This document shows, one piece after another, positions 1,049 to 53,667 of a DNA stretch of 64,000 nucleotides (position 1 is its first letter; each line of letters begins with the position of its first letter). Location of the stretch: assembly GCA_965204095.1 (NCBI GenBank), contig OZ241991.1, forward strand, positions 806,105 through 870,104. The letters are read 5' to 3'. The stretch is from Bryobacterales bacterium (GTDB lineage Bacteria; Acidobacteriota; Terriglobia; Bryobacterales; UBA6623). Under the pieces are notes generated by a model. The model was not told where the DNA came from. It did not search any database and worked only from the letters and a program-made list of their open reading frames with translations. A program made the position numbers and the translations under genes.

Positions 1049-1307
1049 CAGTCCGCGGCAAAAGTCCCGTGGAAGGCGCGGCGGGCTCCTGCGGTCGCTC
1101 GGCGCGAAGTGAGGAGGATGGCGATCCGGGTGATCTCCTCCGACGAACGACAAAGCCGACGAGCGCAAACGTCCGTCGCCCAAAGGGTTACGCGCCACTC
1201 CCGCTCGGCTGCGCGGAGAGCGCGGCGCCACGTTCTTGGAACGGCTAGTCGTTAGCAATCGGCCTCGGGGCGCGTAACGCCGCCCGCGTGACTTTTGACA
1301 CGGGCTG
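1049..1307 (+). repeat. Rep-2 element, copy a (about 260 bp, inverted ends CAGYCCGYGGCAAAAGTC...GACTTTTGMCACGGGCTG)
   Basis: Near-identical to 44888..45147. The predicted ORFs 973..1248 and 44641..45117 share an almost identical peptide only because both read through this repeat. Confidence 0.85.
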
Positions 1308-1608
1308 TTAAGCGTCACTTCCGCTCGGCTGTGCGATGAGCGCGGCGCCGCGTTCCTGGAACGGCCGGACGTTACGCCATTGGCTCCGGGGTGCCTAACC
1401 TGCTTTTCTCACCACGTGGCGGGGCGAAGTGCGTGAGAGGGTCGTCAGGACGAGGCGCGCGCCGCTTGGCGCGCGCAGGCGTACTTGACAGTACGTCGAG
1501 CACGGCAAGCAAGCGCAACGAAGTCATGGCGGTCGTATCGCGTGCTTCGACCGTCGGGTGGTGAGAAATGCAGGCTAACGCCGCCCGAGTGACTTTTGCC
1601 ACGGGCTG
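1308..1608 (+). repeat. tandem partial duplication of the Rep-2 right arm, interrupted by Rep-1 copy A
   Basis: 1308-1394 repeats 1192-1278 and 1579-1608 repeats 1279-1307. Rep-1 lies between the two pieces. Confidence 0.8.
1395..1578 (+). mobile_element. Rep-1 MITE-like element, copy A (176-bp core 1399-1574 plus CTAA direct duplications)
   Basis: Ends CCTGCTTTTCTCACCAC ... GTGGTGAGAAATGCAGG. CTAA is present at 1395-1398 and 1575-1578. The paralogous position in the neighbouring Rep-2 copy is uninterrupted. Confidence 0.85.
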
Positions 1609-5266: not shown

Positions 5267-5451
5267 TTAACCTGCCTTTCTCCCCACGTGGCGAGGCGAA
5301 GTGGGTGAGAGGGCCGTCAGGACGAGGCGCGAGCCGCTTGGCGCGCGCAGGCGTACTTGAACAGTACGTTGAGCACGGCAAGCAAACGCAACGAAGTCCT
5401 GGCGGTCGTATCGCGTGCTTCGACCGTCGGGTGGTGAGAAATGCAGGTTAA
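5267..5451 (+). mobile_element. Rep-1 element, copy C (177-bp core 5271-5447, TTAA both sides)
   Basis: Starts 5 nt after the PQQ-ADH stop. The track start 5415 of the next ORF lies inside it. Confidence 0.85.
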
Positions 5452-8477: not shown

Positions 8478-8746
8478 CTAGTCTGCCTTTCACACCACGC
8501 GGCGAGGCGAAGTGCGTGAGAGGGCCGCCAGGACCAGGCGTAAGCCGGGCGGAGGAAAAAGCGCGAGCCGGGCGAAGAAAAAAGGCGCGCGCAGGCGTAC
8601 TTTACGGTTCAGCGGCCGTCAAACATTTCTTCTGGAGCAAACCGAGCCCCCTGACTAAGGTTTTCACGAATCACGAGACACGAGACACGAATCACGGCCT
8701 TTTTTTCGCGTGCTTCGGCTGTCGGGTGGTGAGCAATGCAGGCTAG
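8478..8746 (+). mobile_element. Rep-1 element, copy D, rearranged (CTAG both sides; centre replaced by other repeat modules)
   Basis: The left arm and the last 40 nt of the right arm are recognisable. The interior carries an internal duplication plus an S-like module and a heptamer array. Confidence 0.7.
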
Positions 8747-8814
8747 AGCCGCCCCAGGCCCGGCCAACAGGTTTTCACGAGACACGAAACACGGCTTTTT
8801 CGTTGCCTCTTGGT

Positions 8815-8839
8815 ACTGAAGCCCTTCAGTCTTGTTTTT
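8815..8839 (+). terminator. hairpin + T-run module (actgaa gccc ttcagt c ttgttttt), repeat-borne
   Basis: 6-bp stem, 4-nt loop, T-rich tail. The same 30-nt module recurs at 9094-9117. The stem is short and AT-rich, so it would be a weak intrinsic terminator. Confidence 0.3.
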
Positions 8840-9093
8840 CCTGCCCCGGCCTGCTAGGCCTGAGCACAGGGAGTCGGCGAGGCGCAGTCCGTGCGGGTCG
8901 CGAATCAGGGCTTCCCAGGCGTTCACCAGCCGCAAGCCACTGATTGTAAGGTCTTTACGGAACACGAATCACAAGACACGAGTCACGGCCGTTATGTTTT
9001 TCACGAATCACGAGACCCGAAACACGAATCACGGCTTTTGGGTTTTTCACGAATCACGAGACTCGAAACACGGTTTTTTTGGTACCTGTTGGT

Positions 9094-9117
9094 ACTGAAG
9101 CCCTTCAGTCTTTTTTT
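9094..9117 (+). terminator. second copy of the hairpin + T7 module
   Basis: actgaa gccc ttcagt c ttttttt, the same module as 8815-8839. Confidence 0.3.
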
Positions 9118-9890
9118 CGGTCGGGGGACGGTTTAGGTTGAAAGTGATGACGCCGTTGTTGGGAACAAAACCCCCATCCGCGCCCGTCGGGGACAAGTCG
9201 GGTGGGGAGAGAAGAGCCGCCCGAGCCGCGGCCTTTCAGGTTTTCACGAAACATGAGACCCGAGACCCGAGACACGGCGATAGCCTGGCGCGCGGCGCAA
9301 GCCAGCGCGAATTCCGAGGTTTTCACGAAACACGAATCACGAGACACGAATCACGAGACACGAATCACGGTTTTTTTTGCATGGGTGGCGCCACCGGAAA
9401 CCGCCGTCCGGACCACTGCGTCCGCCGGCAAGTCACTGTTTCCCGGTTCATCATTGTTCACGATTGTTCGCCATTGTTCGGCAAAAAATATTGTTGGGAG
9501 CCAGTGTCTCCGCGCCGCCCGGACGGCCGTTCCCGCCGCACGGTCACTGCTTTCCTGCGCGCTGTGGGGCGGCTATGACGCGGCATGGGCGGCGTATTGC
9601 TCCCGAGCCGGTGTCCGCGCGCCGTCCGCCGTTCTCGCTCAGACTCACGACGCGCTCCGTTCGCTGGGAATCCCGGAAAAGTGTACAAAATCCCGCTTCC
9701 TACAGGAAAATGCGCCAATCGCATCGCGCCGCAGATCTTGTCGCAACCCGGGCCGCTACCGCTGTGGTGAACGCAACATGAACCCTTATGGCGTTGACAC
9801 TCTCTCTGCCGCACTTTGCGCCTGCCCGAGGAAACAAGCTAGGCTGAGAAACATTCGCAACACTCGCTTCCCTTTTCCAGGAGGAACTCC

Positions 9891-11537
9891 ATGTCGATTC
9901 TCAAAGCGCTCCGTCGCACGAATCCCAGCGGCCTCAGCCGCCGCGAACTCTTCCGCAACGGCGGCCTGCTGGCGGCCGCCGGCCTCGCGCCTGCCGCTGT
10001 GTCCTCTGCTTCCGCCGCTCCCGCGATGAGCTTCGGCTCGGACATGTATCAGTCCATCGGCGTTCGTCCGGTCATCAACGCCAAGGGCACGTTCACGGTG
10101 ATGAGCGGCTCGCTGATGTTGCCCGAATGCCGTCAGGCCATGCAGGAGGCATCGCAGAACTTCGTCCAAATGGACGAGCTGATGGCAGGCGTCGGCAAGC
10201 GCATCGCCGAGATCACCGGCGCAGAATCCGCCATCGTCTCTTCGGGCTGCGCCGCGGCTCTCGTGCATGCCACGTCCGCCTGCATCGCGGGCGGCAACCC
10301 CGAGCGCATTGCCCGGCTGCCCGATCTGGAAGGCCTGAAGAGCGAAATCATCGCTCCGTCCTGGTCGCGCAACACCTACGACCACGCTGTCCGCATGCTG
10401 GGGATCAAGTTCATCGAAGTCGAAAACGAGCAGGAGATGCGCCGCGCCATCGGCGCCAAGACGGCGATGGTCATGGTGCTCGCTACGACTCGTGACAAGG
10501 GGCCGTTCGGACTCAAGGAGATCGCATCGGTAGCTCACGAGCACGACGTGCCGGTCCTGGTGGACGCGGCCGCGGAGGACCTGACCATCCCCAACGTGCA
10601 TCTCGAACGAGGGGCTGATCTTGTCGCCTATTCGGGCGGCAAGGCGTTACGGGGACCGCAGAGCGCCGGCCTGCTGATCGGGCGCAAGGACCTGATCGCC
10701 GCCGCTTGGCTCAACAGCGCGCCGCATCACGCCTTCGGACGCCCGATGAAAGTCGGCAAGGAAGACGCCATGGGTATGCTGGCCGCTGTCGAGATGTGGG
10801 TCAAGCGTGACCACGAGGCCGAGTGGAAGACCTGGGAAAGCTGGCTCGCCGAGATTGCCAACAGCGTCGAGCGCGTGTCGGGAGTGACCACCGAGGTCTC
10901 CCAGCCTCGGGGCTTGTCGAATCGCTCGCCTCGCCTCAGCGTGAAGTGGGACGGAGACAGGATCGGCATTTTCGGCGACGAGGTCGAGAAGCTCCTCTTC
11001 AAGGGGGATCCCCGCATCGTGCTTGCCGGCAGCCGCGGTCGACGGCGCAGGGGCGGTGAGACGTCGGTGACGATCATGCCGTGGCAGATGCAGCCCGGTA
11101 ACGCGAAAGTCATCGCCGCCGAACTGCACCGCGTGCTCTCCAAACCTCCCGAAATGGGCTCGAAGGGATCGCCGGGCGGACCCAACGTCGATGTCGCGGG
11201 CCAGTGGGATCTGCACGTCGACTACGTGCTGGGCAGCGCCGACAACGGGCTCTTCCTCGAGCAGTCGGGCGACGACCTCCACGGAACCCACGTCGGGGAG
11301 GCCACCGCGGCCGACATCCGCGGCTGGGTGGAAGGCAACCAGGTCCACTTCATGGCTCGACATCGCTACGAAGGTTCCGGCTTCGGCTTCACCTTTTCCG
11401 GACAGTTGAACGGAGACAGCATGGAAGGTGAGGTCGATCTCGGCGAATACTCACCCTACGGTCCCGCCAAGTGGTCCGCCAAGCGGCATGAGTACGGCCG
11501 GCCCGGCCCGGTGTTTCGGCCGCAAAAAAACGTCTAG
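9891..11537 (+). CDS. Tat-signal SelA-like (fold-type I, class V-like) PLP-dependent enzyme with a C-terminal beta-rich extension, paralog 1
   Basis: Twin-arginine motif SRRELFRNGGLLAAAGLA. AYSGGKALRGPQSAGLLIG resembles the SelA PLP-lysine loop. AGGAGG lies upstream of the ATG. Clearly homologous along its length to 31614..33227. Confidence 0.8.
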   Translation: MSILKALRRTNPSGLSRRELFRNGGLLAAAGLAPAAVSSASAAPAMSFGSDMYQSIGVRPVINAKGTFTVMSGSLMLPECRQAMQEASQNFVQMDELMAGVGKRIAEITGAESAIVSSGCAAALVHATSACIAGGNPERIARLPDLEGLKSEIIAPSWSRNTYDHAVRMLGIKFIEVENEQEMRRAIGAKTAMVMVLATTRDKGPFGLKEIASVAHEHDVPVLVDAAAEDLTIPNVHLERGADLVAYSGGKALRGPQSAGLLIGRKDLIAAAWLNSAPHHAFGRPMKVGKEDAMGMLAAVEMWVKRDHEAEWKTWESWLAEIANSVERVSGVTTEVSQPRGLSNRSPRLSVKWDGDRIGIFGDEVEKLLFKGDPRIVLAGSRGRRRRGGETSVTIMPWQMQPGNAKVIAAELHRVLSKPPEMGSKGSPGGPNVDVAGQWDLHVDYVLGSADNGLFLEQSGDDLHGTHVGEATAADIRGWVEGNQVHFMARHRYEGSGFGFTFSGQLNGDSMEGEVDLGEYSPYGPAKWSAKRHEYGRPGPVFRPQKNV

Positions 11538-31613: not shown

Positions 31614-33227
31614 ATGCCAAAAACATCGTCGATCAAAGACCGTGCCCGGCTGAGCCGCCGGGACATCTTCCGGGGAGGAGGCCTTGCCGCTTCGGGTTTG
31701 CTGGCTGGGACGGCCTCGATGTCCGCCGCCGCAATGCCTGTGTCGCCCAGCGTCTACACGCGGGTCGGCGTCAAACCCTTCATCAACCTGACGGCGGCCG
31801 TCACGATCAACGGCGGCATGCTGACGTTGCCCAACGTGAAGCAAGCGATGGAGGAAGCATCCTACTTTTCCGTCAACCTGGACGAGCTGATGGAAGGCGT
31901 CGGCAAGCGCCTCGCTGAGATTTTCCAATGCGAGGCGGCCCTTGTCACGTCCGGCGCGGCAGGGTCATTGACGCATGCCACCTCGGCTTGCCTCGCCGGG
32001 GGCGATCCCGAACGGATTCAGCAGTTGCCTGATCTGACGGGGCTCCGCACGCAGGTCATCATGCCCCGCGAGTCGCGCAATACGTATGACCATGCGATTC
32101 GAGCCCTCGGCGTGAAGATGATCACCGTCGACACCCGCGAGGAATTTTACCGCGCACTGAGCCGCAACACCGCGATGATTTCCGTGCTCGGCAACGCGGA
32201 ATCGCGGGGGCCGATCCGCCTCGAGGAGTTCGTCGAAGCCGGACACAAGTACGGAGCGCCGGTGGTCGTCGATGCTTCGCCGGAGTGGCCGCAGTCGCCG
32301 GACCCCTACCTGGAGCGCGGCGCTGACCTCGTCGCCTATTCGGGCGGCAAGATCTGCGCCGGCCCACAGTGCAGCGGATTCTTGATTGGCCGCAAAGACC
32401 TCATCCACGCCGCTTGGATGAACAGTTCGCCTCATCACGCTTTCGGCCGCATGATGAAGGTCGGCAAGGAAGAGATCATGGGCGCGTTGGTGGCTGCCGA
32501 GTTCACCTTGAGCCGGCGCAACGTCGAGCACGAACTCGACAAGTGGAACGGCTGGATCAGGCGGATTGACGCCAAGCTCAAGAAGGTTCCCGGGGTGCGG
32601 ACGAAGCACAACCCGCCGCCGGGCAAGAATCCGCATCCCGTTCTCGAGATCGCCTGGGACCCCGAGCGCATCGGCTACACCGCTGGAGAGGTCCACGATG
32701 TCCTGATGGGCAGCGAGCCTCGGGTTCAGACTCACGCGGGGGGCGAGGGCCACAGTTTCGCCATTCGGGTCGGTAACTGCCGCGAGGACCAGATCGATGT
32801 GGTGGCGGACCGCCTCGCGGAGGTCTTCCGCAGTGCGCCCACGCCGAAACCAGAACGCAACATGCCTCCGGCAGCGGATGTCTCCGGCCGTTGGGATGTG
32901 GAGATCAGCTTTGTCCGCGGCTCAGCCCGTCATAGCCTGTACTTCGATGCCGAAGGCGGTCATCTGCGCGGAACGCACATCGGACAACGCGGACAAGGCG
33001 AGCTGGCCGGCTCCATCAATGGCAACCACGTCCGCTTCCGCAGTCGATTGACGTACGACGCCGAGCGCAGCAGTTATCTGTTCGACGGCGAGCTGAAGGG
33101 CGACGAGATTGCCGGCGCTCTCGATCTCGGCGAATACGGCAAGGCCACCTTCAAGGCGTGGCGTCACGCATACGGAAAACCGCGCCGCAAAGACCCTTCC
33201 GTTTCCGGGAAAACAGAGAAAATATAA
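31614..33227 (+). CDS. Tat-signal SelA-like PLP-dependent enzyme, paralog 2
   Basis: SRRDIFRGGGLAASGLLAG; AYSGGKICAGPQCSGFLIG. Same domain order and same C-terminal extension as 9891..11537. Confidence 0.8.
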   Translation: MPKTSSIKDRARLSRRDIFRGGGLAASGLLAGTASMSAAAMPVSPSVYTRVGVKPFINLTAAVTINGGMLTLPNVKQAMEEASYFSVNLDELMEGVGKRLAEIFQCEAALVTSGAAGSLTHATSACLAGGDPERIQQLPDLTGLRTQVIMPRESRNTYDHAIRALGVKMITVDTREEFYRALSRNTAMISVLGNAESRGPIRLEEFVEAGHKYGAPVVVDASPEWPQSPDPYLERGADLVAYSGGKICAGPQCSGFLIGRKDLIHAAWMNSSPHHAFGRMMKVGKEEIMGALVAAEFTLSRRNVEHELDKWNGWIRRIDAKLKKVPGVRTKHNPPPGKNPHPVLEIAWDPERIGYTAGEVHDVLMGSEPRVQTHAGGEGHSFAIRVGNCREDQIDVVADRLAEVFRSAPTPKPERNMPPAADVSGRWDVEISFVRGSARHSLYFDAEGGHLRGTHIGQRGQGELAGSINGNHVRFRSRLTYDAERSSYLFDGELKGDEIAGALDLGEYGKATFKAWRHAYGKPRRKDPSVSGKTEKI

Positions 33228-42510: not shown

Positions 42511-42587
42511 TGGTCGGGCCGCCGAGATTTGAACTCGGGACCTCTTCCACCCCAAGGAAGCGCGCTACCAGGCTGCGCCACGGCCCG
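42511..42587 (-). tRNA. tRNA-Pro (anticodon GGG)
   Basis: Hand-folded 77-nt cloverleaf: acceptor CGGGCCG/CGGCCCG, D stem GCGC/GCGC, anticodon stem CTTCC/GGAAG with loop TTGGGGT, T arm CCGAG-TTCAAAT-CTCGG, encoded ACCA. Confidence 0.9.
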
Positions 42588-44657: not shown

Positions 44658-44887
44658 CGCATTCGTGCAGGCACTCCATTCTCGCAGGCGGACGCTCGAT
44701 AGTGAGCCCTCATCAGCGCGTCATCTTGCGATTCGGCAACCCGTCAAGGCGTCCAGCCGATATCCAGGCAGGTCATGCCGCTGTGCTCCCGAGGCCCCGC
44801 AGGGATCGAAGCCTGGAGTACATCAGTCCCGTGCAAAGCCAACCGCACCCCGCCGGTCCCAGTTCAATGCACCTGCGGCACGGCTAG

Positions 44888-45147
44888 CAGCCCGTGGTAA
44901 AAGTCCCGTGGAGGGCGCGGCGGGCTCCTGCGGTCGTTCGGCGCGGAGTGAGGAGGATGGCGATCCGGGTGATCTCCTCCGACGAACGACAAAGCCGACG
45001 ACTGCAAATGTCCGTCGCCCGAAGGGTTACGCGCCACTCCCGCTCCGCTGCGCGGAGAGCGAGGCTCCACGTTCCTGGAACGGCCAAGCGTTATGCTATC
45101 GCCCCCGGGGCGCGTGACGCCGGCCGCGTGACTTTTGCCACGGGCTG
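44888..45147 (+). repeat. Rep-2 element, copy b
   Basis: Aligns end to end with 1049..1307. Inverted ends cagcccgtggtaaaagtc / gacttttgccacgggctg. Flanks CTAG and TTAG. Confidence 0.85.
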
Positions 45148-47231: not shown

Positions 47232-47556
47232 CAGCCCATGGGAAAAGTCCCGTCGTGAGAAGGGAAAAGCGCGGCGGGCTACTGCGGTCGATGTGAAGAA
47301 AAAGCGAGGTCACTACGGGCGGCAATCTCAGCACCGTTGACGGAACGAATCGGATCGCAAACGCCCGTCGCCCGAAGGGTTGCGCCCGCCGGGGATCTCG
47401 GCCGGAAGCACGGAAACACGAATCACCGGTTTTTTCACGAAACACGAATCACGGTCTTTCCCATCGAGCCGGCCAGGCAGGCACAATGCTTGCGTCCTTT
47501 GAGCGACAGCCGTACCGCCAGCCTCGGCTGTTGAGTGACGAGACACGAATCACGGC
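47232..47556 (+). repeat. partial Rep-2 (copy c, left half only) followed by heptamer arrays
   Basis: cagcccatgggaaaagtcccgtcg... matches the Rep-2 left end and interior. CACGARW arrays at 47409-47456 and 47536-47556. No right Rep-2 end. Confidence 0.7.
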
Positions 47557-47571
47557 TCTTACGCGGCGGCG

Positions 47572-50806: not shown

Positions 50807-51172
50807 CTAGCCTGCATGCCTTACCACGTGGCGAGGCAAAGTGAGTGCTTCCGACCTCGGATCAAGAATCCATGAATCGCAAAACACGGCCTTTACGATT
50901 CACCGGCCCTCAGACATTCCTTTCGAGAGCGAACTAGCCTGCATTTCTCACCACGTGGCGAGGCGAAGTGCGTGAGAGGGGCGTCAGGACGAGGCGCGAG
51001 CCGCTTGGCGCGCGCAGGCGTACTTGAACCGTACGTTGAGCACGGCAAGCAAGCGCAACGAAGTCCTGGCGGTCGTATCGCGTGCTTCGGCCGTCGGGTG
51101 GTGAGACATGCAGGCTAGGCCGCCACCAATGGTTTTCACTAAAAACTAACCACTAACAACTAACCACTGCCT
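50807..51172 (+). repeat. Rep-3 composite repeat, copy 1 (stub + heptamers + S module + T module) carrying nested Rep-1 copy E
   Basis: Modules: ctagcctgcatgcc... (Rep-1-like left stub), degenerate heptamers, cacggcctttacgattcaccggccctcagacattcctttcgagagcgaa (S), [Rep-1 E], gccgccaccaatggttttcactaaaaactaaccactaacaactaaccac (T). Confidence 0.8.
50934..51118 (+). mobile_element. Rep-1 element, copy E (177-bp core 50938-51114, CTAG both sides)
   Basis: Best-preserved copy, with 20 of 21 terminal positions pairing between the two ends. Inserted between the S and T modules of Rep-3. Confidence 0.9.
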
Positions 51173-51772
51173 TTACGTTTTCCCCCGGTGCAAACCCAGC
51201 GCCATGCGGCCCAGCCGCATCAGGTGAGCGTGAACCGCATAGCCGAGGAGATAGACAAACACGAACGGAAAGACGATAAACCGGACCAGGGTGCGCGGAG
51301 CGGATTTATCGAGCAGGCCCGCCCGATGCATGCAGAGGCGGGCCAGATTGCCAAAATTGCCGCGGTCGAGCCAGAAGAAGTCGGCGTTCTCGTTTGCGAT
51401 GAGGAACTTCGCCGGGATGAGCAGCAAGCTCGCCGCGCGCCAGCGAGCCATGATGGGCCCGCCCGCATACAGCACCACGGCGATGCCGTGCCGGCGGTTG
51501 CGGACCTCATGCAGCAGACGCCAGCGGGCGTGGTCGTCGGTGTATTCGGTGACACGCCAGACCTGACGTTTCGTGTCCGGCGCGAGTTGCAAAGGCAGAC
51601 CCGGCCAGCAAGTAAGCAGGTCGATAACGACGTTCTCGCCGAAGGCCCTCTTCAAGTGTGGGATCAGCTTTTCCGTAACGTCGCGCTTGCCGCTCTCGAC
51701 GAGCAGAATGCGTTCCGTCTCCGGAACGCGTCGGCTGAGAACCCAGCGCATCCCGCTCATTCTATTCCGCAT
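51173..51772 (-). CDS. hypothetical membrane-associated protein
   Basis: ERILLVESGKRDVTEKLIPHLKRAFGENVVIDLLTC (Rossmann-like start) and a C-terminal TM helix LVRFIVFPFVFVYLLGYAV. The track start 51772 lies in Rep-1 F; ATG 51760 or 51751 are alternatives. Confidence 0.55.
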   Translation of the reverse strand: MRNRMSGMRWVLSRRVPETERILLVESGKRDVTEKLIPHLKRAFGENVVIDLLTCWPGLPLQLAPDTKRQVWRVTEYTDDHARWRLLHEVRNRRHGIAVVLYAGGPIMARWRAASLLLIPAKFLIANENADFFWLDRGNFGNLARLCMHRAGLLDKSAPRTLVRFIVFPFVFVYLLGYAVHAHLMRLGRMALGLHRGKT

Positions 51773-51945
51773 GTCTCGCTACGTGACGAGGCGAAGTGCG
51801 TCATAGGGCCGTCAGGACGAGCCGCGAGCCGCTGGGCGCGCGCAGGCGTACTTGACAGTACGTTGAGCACGGCAAGCAAGCGCAACGAAGTCCTGGCGGT
51901 CTTATCGTGTGCTTCGACCGTCGGGTGGTGAGAAATGCAGGTTAG
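51765..51945 (+). mobile_element. Rep-1 element, copy F (left end degenerate, right end ...gcagg TTAG)
   Basis: Interior and right arm match copies B/C/E. The left terminal repeat has decayed (ccgcatgtctcgctacgtg). Confidence 0.75.
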
Positions 51946-52608: not shown

Positions 52609-52821
52609 CCTGCACTATGCAGCACGCGCCAAGGCGAAGCGCCTGCCGGCAGGACGAGCCGCGAGACGCTCGAAGCGCTCCGGCCCCGTGTCCCGAATCA
52701 CGAGACACGAAACACCGGGCTGTTAAGGTTCACCGGCCGTCAGACATTTCTTTCGAGAGCGAACCAGGTCGCCACCAATGGTTTTCACTAAAAACTAACC
52801 ACTAACAACTAACCACGGCCT
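52605..52821 (+). repeat. Rep-3 composite repeat, copy 2 (fills the whole convergent intergenic spacer)
   Basis: Degenerate Rep-1-like left arm, heptamers (gaatcacgagacacgaaacacc), then S and T modules. Confidence 0.8.
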
Positions 52822-53667
52822 TCACTCCAGCTTGTCCAGGCCTTCGGTAAGCTCGATATTCGTGCCCCAGGGGTCCGTCAGGAAGGCGATCGAGAAACCC
52901 AGGCTCTTCACGTGCTCGTAGGGGCGGTCGAACTTGACGCCCTGCCGTTCCAGCTTCCGGCAGAAGCTTTCCAGATCATCGATTTCGAAACCGATGTGGT
53001 CGAGCACGCGGCCCTTGATGGGCTCTTGCGGCGTGTCGGTGCGAGTGTAGGTGAGGTTGACTCCGGGCAGGTCGGCTGCCTCGAAGATCCCGCGCCGCAT
53101 CGGCCTCGCGCCGAAGATGTCGGCGTACCAGGCCTGCATTTTCTTGTCATACTGGCCCGCGAAGTGGATGTGGTGATTCGCCAACGGCGTCTTCAGGGCG
53201 CGGTTTTCGAACATTTCGATCTTCAGTTCGTCGGGCCCCATGATGAACGCCAGATAGCGGTACTGGCTGGGACTGAAGAAAATGTCTCCCTTGGCGCGGT
53301 TGCGGCTGATTTCCGCCTTCGTCACCACCGGCACGCCGGCCGCGCGCACCTTCGCCACCATCGCCGGTACATCGGGAAACTGGATGCCGATGTGATTCAC
53401 CGAGCTGCCCTTGGTGCCGTCGGTCGGCTTCTGCTCGCGGAGAAAGATCAGGGCGTTGGGATACTTGACGTACTCCATCGTGTCGAGCTTCCCCGCCTTC
53501 GCGCCGATCACGTCGACCCAGAAGCGCTTGTGCTCGTCGAGGTCGCTTACGTTCAGATACATGCGGCCCATCGCGACGGGCGCTTCCCGGGCCGCGATGA
53601 GCTGCGCCTGGACGGGAATCGAGAGCACGGATGCAAGCAGAGCGGTAGCGAACAGTCTTTTTATCAT
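52822..53667 (-). CDS. secreted two-domain VOC (glyoxalase/bleomycin-resistance/dioxygenase) family protein
   Basis: ATG 53667 gives MIKRLFATALLASVLSIPVQAQ. Two VOC-like halves (VNHIGIQF..., LDHIGFEIDD...). Confidence 0.75.
   Translation of the reverse strand: MIKRLFATALLASVLSIPVQAQLIAAREAPVAMGRMYLNVSDLDEHKRFWVDVIGAKAGKLDTMEYVKYPNALIFLREQKPTDGTKGSSVNHIGIQFPDVPAMVAKVRAAGVPVVTKAEISRNRAKGDIFFSPSQYRYLAFIMGPDELKIEMFENRALKTPLANHHIHFAGQYDKKMQAWYADIFGARPMRRGIFEAADLPGVNLTYTRTDTPQEPIKGRVLDHIGFEIDDLESFCRKLERQGVKFDRPYEHVKSLGFSIAFLTDPWGTNIELTEGLDKLE

Follow-up and report, generated by a model that had tools for sequence, protein, structure and literature searches.

The spacer between a histidine-kinase gene (minus strand) and the divergently transcribed gene for a 280-aa exported protein is 768 bp long in the 64-kb window, by which we mean the whole stretch of DNA analysed, and it contains two adjacent copies of a repeated sequence, one of which is interrupted. 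A full-length copy of a repeat of about 259 bp, referred to here as Rep-2 (copy a), lies on the plus strand at 1049–1307, its ends being set by an inverted repeat and by the alignment of eight copies from the window and from Bryobacterales loci. The right 121 bp of this copy (arm a; 1187–1307, plus strand), identified among direct-repeat families and by global alignment, recur directly downstream as a second right arm (arm b). The left part of arm b extends over 1307–1394, up to the insertion (BLAST E = 1e-17 against arm a), and its right part over 1579–1608 (BLAST E = 6e-8), with the Rep-2 right terminus ...CACGGGCTG at its end. Between the two parts are a CTAA tetranucleotide at 1395–1398, a 176-bp element, Rep-1, at 1399–1574 and a second CTAA at 1575–1578, all of them, like both parts of arm b, on the plus strand. 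An earlier note on this DNA had described the repeated unit as the right ~115 bp of Rep-2; the tandem repetition is borne out, with a unit that measures 120–121 bp.

Rep-1 at this site starts with CCTGCTTTTCTCACCAC, ends with GTGGTGAGAAATGCAGG and is 96.0% identical to a family consensus built from 52 copies. Its 17-nt terminal inverted repeats carry one mismatch on the left side in this copy, its arms form a 27-nt inverted repeat that is 81–85% complementary, and the element folds (as DNA) into one long hairpin of -59.3 kcal/mol (z = -6.7 against shuffles). The right CTAA is followed by CGCCGCCCGAGTGACTTTTGCCACGGGCTG at 1579–1608, and without Rep-1 the arm b junction would read ...GGGGTGCCTAACGCCGCCCGAG... 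When 1399–1578 (Rep-1 and one CTAA) is removed, the global alignment of arm a with the insert-free arm b runs colinearly across the former junction, with 102 of 122 columns identical and a single 1-nt gap. The arms are thus homologous across the junction, and the clean 4-bp direct repeat that the earlier note had seen on either side of the core is present as described. Arm a indeed holds the adjacent site in its empty form, but the tetranucleotide there is GTAA (1274–1277, plus strand) and not CTAA. With Rep-2 homology on both sides and the 4-bp direct repeat, the proposal that Rep-1 moved after Rep-2-type sequence was in place holds: Rep-1 inserted into one of a pair of neighbouring copies of an older repeat.

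Rep-1 is a family of 176–177-bp sequences without coding capacity, a length that leaves no room for a gene. Its termini are 17-nt perfect inverted repeats, CCTGCATTTCTCACCAC, which can be extended to ~27 nt and imperfectly to ~60 nt, and copy 2 in the window has a 21-nt inverted repeat that is 100% complementary. The window contains the 17-nt terminus 12 times, where 0.11 occurrences are expected, and at least five full copies are present. Besides the one in arm b, copies 2 (2670–2846) and 3 (5271–5447) have TTAA on both sides (at 2666–2669 and 2847–2850 for copy 2), copy 4 (50938–51114) has CTAG on both sides, a full copy with a decayed left end lies at ~51766–51941, and a 261-bp variant at 8482–8742 is again flanked by CTAG on both sides; copies 2 to 4 are on the plus strand. 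We scanned 185,579 species genomes for the exact 17-nt terminus, which gave at least 100 stretches (cited by labels such as L004). Among the matches listed, the stretches come mostly from Bryobacterales MAGs, with about 45 from the complete chromosome OZ242366.1, and at least 68 matches among the 100 stretches listed are full-length, again mostly in Bryobacterales. The modal length across ~130 terminal-repeat pairs is 170–180 bp, and the 52 copies behind the consensus are ~96% identical to it. Rep-1 is abundant in genomes of Bryobacterales (Acidobacteriota). An Rfam scan of the whole window gave no match to Rep-1, the sole match being a tRNA at 42514–42587; plasmid BLAST with the termini yielded no meaningful match, and a literature search on the terminal sequence returned unrelated primers only.

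The tetranucleotides on either side of Rep-1 vary between copies. Among copies of 170–200 bp they are CTAG/CTAG in 24 cases, CTAA/CTAA in five, TTAG/TTAG in four and TTAA/TTAA in four, the remainder being mostly one-base departures, so that 37 of ~85 copies have symmetric flanks; the inverted combination CTAA/TTAG does not occur in this set. Left and right tetranucleotides co-vary at the first base (Fisher p = 8.5e-6) and at the fourth (p = 6e-8). Because the flank differs from copy to copy while matching left to right, including the non-palindromic pairs CTAA/CTAA and TTAG/TTAG, it is a true 4-bp target duplication at 5'-YTAR-3' and lies outside the element. The concern that CTAA might belong to the Rep-1 consensus in all copies is removed by the same observation.

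Rep-1 thus combines a short, non-coding body with terminal inverted repeats, a variable but matched duplication and dispersed, polymorphic copies, the features of a miniature inverted-repeat element (MITE), and it is a previously unnamed repeat family of this well-known kind. Bacterial MITEs such as Correia/NEMIS of Neisseria and RUP of Streptococcus pneumoniae are 100–300 bp long, non-coding, intergenic, hairpin-forming and mobilised in trans, and they too have terminal inverted repeats, a target-site duplication and many copies. Their target duplication is TA, and each is linked to a known IS family, whereas Rep-1 has a 4-bp YTAR duplication and unrelated termini, and is found in Bryobacterales. 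REP/BIME sequences, being 20–40-nt imperfect palindromes with no target duplication, differ from Rep-1 both in its length of 176 bp and in its 4-bp duplication.

We consider it highly probable that Rep-1 is a non-coding, insertion-sequence-derived MITE which is mobilised in trans by a DDE cut-and-paste transposase with a 4-nt stagger at YTAR, and that it inserted after Rep-2. Here we infer both the class of the Rep-1 enzyme and the chemistry of its stagger. A DDE-type transposase encoded elsewhere would recognise the CCTGCATTTCTCACCAC termini and attack 5'-YTAR-3' with a 4-nt stagger, and gap repair would duplicate the tetranucleotide on both sides. In the present case, Rep-2 would have entered the spacer between the two divergently transcribed genes, its right 120 bp would have come to be present twice, the second arm would have gained CTAA where the family has GTAA, and Rep-1 would then have inserted at the CTAA of arm b.

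Judged by target and duplication length, the Rep-1 transposase is a candidate IS5-group-like enzyme, with IS701 or IS1380 as alternatives. IS5 makes 4-bp YTAR duplications that equal the flank spectrum of Rep-1, but it is a 1.2-kb autonomous element as opposed to a short non-coding one (PMC5009759). Nearly all members of IS701, which is widespread across phyla, duplicate exactly 4 bp; the published end consensus of that family (---YACT-Y--YR), which according to the same paper is not family-wide, does not fit the Rep-1 end CCTGCATTTCTC (PMC2266710). Neither an IS5-type transposase next to Rep-1 termini nor an IS701-type transposase by Rep-1 was found in the stretches listed or in the window. 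The ends of IS5, which we take to be GGAAGGTG..., are unlike the CCTGCATTTC of Rep-1. IS5-group ends start with GG (ISfinder tables) and Rep-1 termini start with CC, while IS1380 elements have CC ends, like Rep-1, together with 4–5-bp duplications (ISfinder table).

Searches for an autonomous partner were made in several ways. No element joining Rep-1 termini to a DDE transposase was present among the matches listed, in ~0.8 Mb of DNA, or in the window. Terminal-repeat pairs 0.4–3.5 kb apart in the 100 stretches listed enclosed nothing but IS110-family genes that had entered Rep-1, host genes lying between a pair of MITEs, or non-coding filler sequence, and single Rep-1 termini without a mate had no adjoining transposase among those stretches. 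All-against-all clustering of 1113 ORFs revealed no multi-copy transposase family. When metagenomes were scanned for left halves of Rep-1 that run into other sequence, eight chance matches and one mutated Rep-1 were recovered, and the scan of viral contigs gave one chance match in DNA of 37% GC. IS110-family enzymes were considered as the mobiliser and rejected, since the flanks of Rep-1 have no more than 4 bp in common and the IS110 copies entered the centre of Rep-1 secondarily.

The empty counterparts of filled sites bear more closely on the mechanism. For every Rep-1 copy, the two flanks were fused and uninterrupted matches to the product were sought, which left nine usable, independent comparisons (a further case, L016, was left uncounted, since its paralogues show several differences near the site). 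In seven of the nine, a single base separates the empty or consensus site from YTAR, compared with ~3 expected from flank identities alone. Filled CTAA stands against empty GTAA for the copy at 1399–1574 and against CAAA in L004; filled CTAG against CCAG for copy 4 at 50938, and again for the copy at 9714 of L101, where only the left flank is CTAG and the right is CCAA; filled CTAG/CTAA against CGAA in L017, where the copy is nested in Rep-1; and filled TTAA against TCAA (L101 and L103) for copy 2 and against TTCA for copy 3. The site is unchanged in two comparisons (L048 and L063, in both directions) and in that of copy 2 with L102.

One way to account for this pattern is a piggyBac/IS1380-type transposase that carries 4-nt overhangs from the donor site, near-cognate targets being converted to the donor YTAR on one or both sides. 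The CC termini of Rep-1 and a 4-bp duplication with central TA suit such an enzyme, as do the seven one-off sites and the asymmetric flanks of some old copies (CTAG|CCAA over an empty CCAG in L101, for example). piggyBac has been paired with IS1380-like elements, IS1380 being its prokaryotic counterpart (PMC5718144); it targets TTAA with a 4-bp duplication, whereas Rep-1 targets YTAR with CTAG the commonest. We nevertheless regard overhang conversion as quite improbable. No transposase of the piggyBac/IS1380 type was found in the stretches listed or in the window, and copy 2 set against L102, the cleanest of the comparisons and the youngest, has its TTAA unchanged. Moreover, YTAR is strongly depleted in this 61% GC genome: with Rep-1 masked, observed/expected ratios in the window are 0.13 for CTAG, 0.22 for CTAA/TTAG and 0.27 for TTAA, and the tetranucleotides neighbouring YTAR are 5–15 times commoner than YTAR itself. 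Given a rare and strict target, the transposase would land only where a neighbouring tetranucleotide has already changed to YTAR. The excess of one-off empty sites would then be one of ascertainment, existing YTARs being, at equilibrium, mostly recent derivatives of their common neighbours, which is an argument rather than a test. Asymmetric flanks, for their part, occur at the rate expected from ~10% decay over eight bases. On the strength of this rate and of the YTAR depletion we keep the plain target-duplication mechanism. Every insertion of Rep-1 also creates a further copy of the scarce target, an effect that may contribute to the nesting of repeats and to their end-to-end clustering in L012, L054, L017 and L001.

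A second departure from the four-base duplication would have only the central TA duplicated, in the manner of IS630/Tc1 or IS711, with the outer bases belonging to the element or to unduplicated target. There is precedent in Brucella, with IS711 (IS5 family) and the Bru-RS palindromic repeats: IS711 targets YTAR, appears to duplicate only TA and favours palindromic repeats, so that its insertion into short palindromic repeats resembles Rep-1 inside or abutting Rep-2 (PMC2266754). IS711 is autonomous, however, and Rep-1 duplicates all four bases. The commonest palindromic flanks, CTAG and TTAA, cannot separate the two models, and the empty TTAA of L102 fits both. The decision comes from the non-palindromic flanks, which are directly repeated (five CTAA/CTAA and four TTAG/TTAG, as well as the copy at 1399–1574) and never inverted, and from the co-variation of the outer bases, since TA-only duplication predicts that positions 1 and 4 are independent. 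We accordingly hold a TA-only duplication to be very improbable.

The order of events can be read from the Rep-2 family, which has terminal inverted repeats CAGTCCGCGGCAAAAGTC... / ...GACTTTTGACACGGGCTG (CAGTCCGYGG.AAAAGTC). A third copy in the window, at 44883–45147 (plus strand), is unduplicated and empty, with GTGA at 45114–45117, and Rep-2 also recurs in several OZ242366.1 stretches. Its flanks resemble decayed YTAR pairs (CTAG/TTAG, TCAA/TTAA, CTAG/CTGG and CCAG/CCAA), and Rep-2 is probably a MITE as well, of greater age and with a target of the same type. That it is the older family follows from the mutual identity of its right arms (63–93%), set against ~96% to consensus for Rep-1. Nine empty Rep-2 right arms could be aligned over the point where Rep-1 inserted; seven of them read GTAA there, one GTGA and one GTAG, and hence the empty state is ancestral. 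Both duplicated tetranucleotides at the filled site are CTAA while the family has GTAA, so arm b already read CTAA before the insertion; the sites in arms a and b differed when Rep-1 landed. In another genome (L004), Rep-1 sits in a different Rep-2 copy at a different internal position, with CTAA at the filled site and CAAA in all other copies. The order, Rep-2 first and Rep-1 later, is secure.

It follows that little room is left for the reverse sequence, in which Rep-1 would have entered the arm before the arm was duplicated and then have been excised precisely from arm a. Some cut-and-paste elements do excise precisely, and the arms, at 16% divergence, are old enough for several events. But precise excision would leave CTAA, and arm a has the GTAA of the family, including copies in another genome, and carries no footprint. 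We find the reverse sequence extremely improbable.

How Rep-2 came to have two right arms is a separate matter. The arms differ in 20 columns; the majority base of the family is found in arm a at 12 of these and in arm b at seven (p = 0.36). Faster evolution of arm b was considered on this basis and set aside, the asymmetry not being significant, and the ages of the arms could be equal. The two arms have only one rare variant in common; arm a has five in common with L031_7532 and three with the third Rep-2 copy of the window, and these are missing from arm b at four positions. The term "duplicated arm" in the earlier note is apt as a label for the repeated sequence and need not denote a duplication event. 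Two readings of the sequences may be offered: the early duplication of a near-consensus copy may have been followed by conversion of arm a from some other copy, or two pieces of Rep-2 with separate origins may have been brought together. The tetranucleotides bounding the whole block, CGAG (1045–1048) and CTTG (1609–1612), are each one base from CTAG, which fits a single original insertion and proves nothing.

Related genomes supply orthologous loci. The closest relatives of the flanking 280-aa protein are 90%, 85% and 81% identical to it, and the gene order is kept: histidine kinase (minus strand), 280-aa protein, cytochrome c, PQQ dehydrogenase and enolase-superfamily protein. The relatives compared were L101 (OZ244625.1), L102 (a 1.9-kb Logan contig, SRR8304772) and L103. 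In L101 and L103 the whole block 1049–1608 is missing and the kinase-to-protein spacer is ~210 bp, as against 768 bp in the window. L102, which is ~94.7% identical to the window at the DNA level with differences at scattered positions, has its first base within the final 24 nt of Rep-1, from where it runs through CTAA, the end of arm b and the unique flank as the window does. As L102 carries the same Rep-1/CTAA/arm b junction, the site was filled before the window and L102 lineages split, and the insertion at 1399–1574 is not recent. The earlier suggestion that relatives be inspected for the locus without the insertion is thus answered in part, by two genomes lacking the entire Rep-2/Rep-1 block and one already filled. 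An assembly artefact, with repeats collapsed or mis-joined, is scarcely credible: assemblers do fail in repeat-dense spacers, and L102 itself breaks inside Rep-1, but this independent assembly from another sample has the same right junction, and arms that differ at 20 positions are not a collapsed duplicate.

Two further Rep-1 copies of the same operon have orthologous sites that are cleanly empty. The site of copy 2 (2670–2846) is empty in all three relatives, with a single TTAA in L102 and TCAA in L101 and L103, and that of copy 3 (5271–5447) is empty in L101 and L103, where it reads TTCA. L101 has a Rep-1 of its own at 9714–9889 that is absent from the window and from L103. The polymorphism of these copies indicates that Rep-1 moved during the divergence of these lineages. 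Copies 2 and 3 with their flanks (2666–2850 and 5267–5451) occupy spacers of the 280-aa protein/cytochrome c/PQQ dehydrogenase/enolase-superfamily cluster; the last bases of copy 2 run over a potential ATG at 2840 in the cytochrome c ORF.

The locus is an internally controlled example of MITE insertion, with an empty paralogue beside the filled site, and it shows by what rule an abundant repeat of Bryobacterales, a poorly studied soil lineage, selects its target (YTAR, with a 4-bp duplication). For annotation, 180-bp hairpins between operon genes could pass for regulatory RNAs; for assembly, contigs break inside Rep-1, as in L102; and for dating, Rep-1 insertions provide polymorphism markers between close lineages. 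This is ordinary transposon biology, with no new mechanism. The insertion of Rep-1 into Rep-2 is less unusual than two further observations, the occurrence of the terminus across phyla and the landing of an IS110 element in the Rep-1 centre.

The exact terminus CCTGCATTTCTCACCAC, nearly always after CTAG, CTAA or TTAG, heads different short elements in other phyla. It is found in Verrucomicrobiota (L002, L005, L024, L039, L045, L047, L071, L072 and L096), where one element is ~67 bp long, in Planctomycetota (L003, L077, L089 and L090) and further in L022 and L040; some of the contigs are short and perhaps mis-binned, and several are long. An unrecognised and very widespread transposase with conserved end recognition could lie behind this distribution and, if piggyBac/IS1380-like, could rewrite near-cognate sites to YTAR, an idea that we think unlikely. 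If true, overhang rewriting by a widespread enzyme would account for the excess of one-off empty sites.

A 1.44-kb IS110-family element (Pfam DEDD_Tnp_IS110 and Transposase_20) is present in OZ242366.1 in five 100%-identical copies, the complete one at L027 6395–7833 and the others at L074 7433–8000, L064 7860–8000, L067 1–475 and L069 7780–8000. Every copy interrupts a separate Rep-1, always at an identical point in its centre, as GTACTGTTCAA|IS|AAGTACGCC, with AA on both sides. The Rep-1 centre appears to be where an active IS110 element specifically lands, and the target loop of its bridge RNA would be expected to match GTACTGTTCAAGTACGCC. Some IS110/IS1111 members target REP elements, a parallel to the insertions in Rep-1. 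A second, unrelated IS110-family gene (310–345 aa) lies at L078 6554–7978, with an unpaired Rep-1 left terminus on one side and a variant right half of Rep-1 on the other.

Several other repeats were encountered. Copy 4 of Rep-1 is nested, within 50807–51118, in a repeat family that starts with the related terminus CCTGCATGCCTTACCAC; uninterrupted paralogues near 52710–52825 and 54281–54383 have CCAG at the site (~52767 and ~54332). Short-unit arrays of CACGAATCACGAGACACGA / CACTAAAAACTAACCAC lie at 8656–9375, 47514–47560, 51128–51174, 52777–52823 and 54206–54252, and the same units are found inside Rep-1 variants (8482–8742 in the window and 1592–2021 in L035). At L054 1393–2277, two inverted Rep-1-like termini with mismatched flanks (CTGG/TTAC) surround an ORF of 246 aa whose start resembles a signal peptide; this is either a host gene with a MITE on each side or an element with a passenger. 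Finally, two gene-length regions of the window, 10134–11450 and 31842–33137, which lie 21.7 kb apart, are 71–86% identical over several blocks and are probably paralogous genes.
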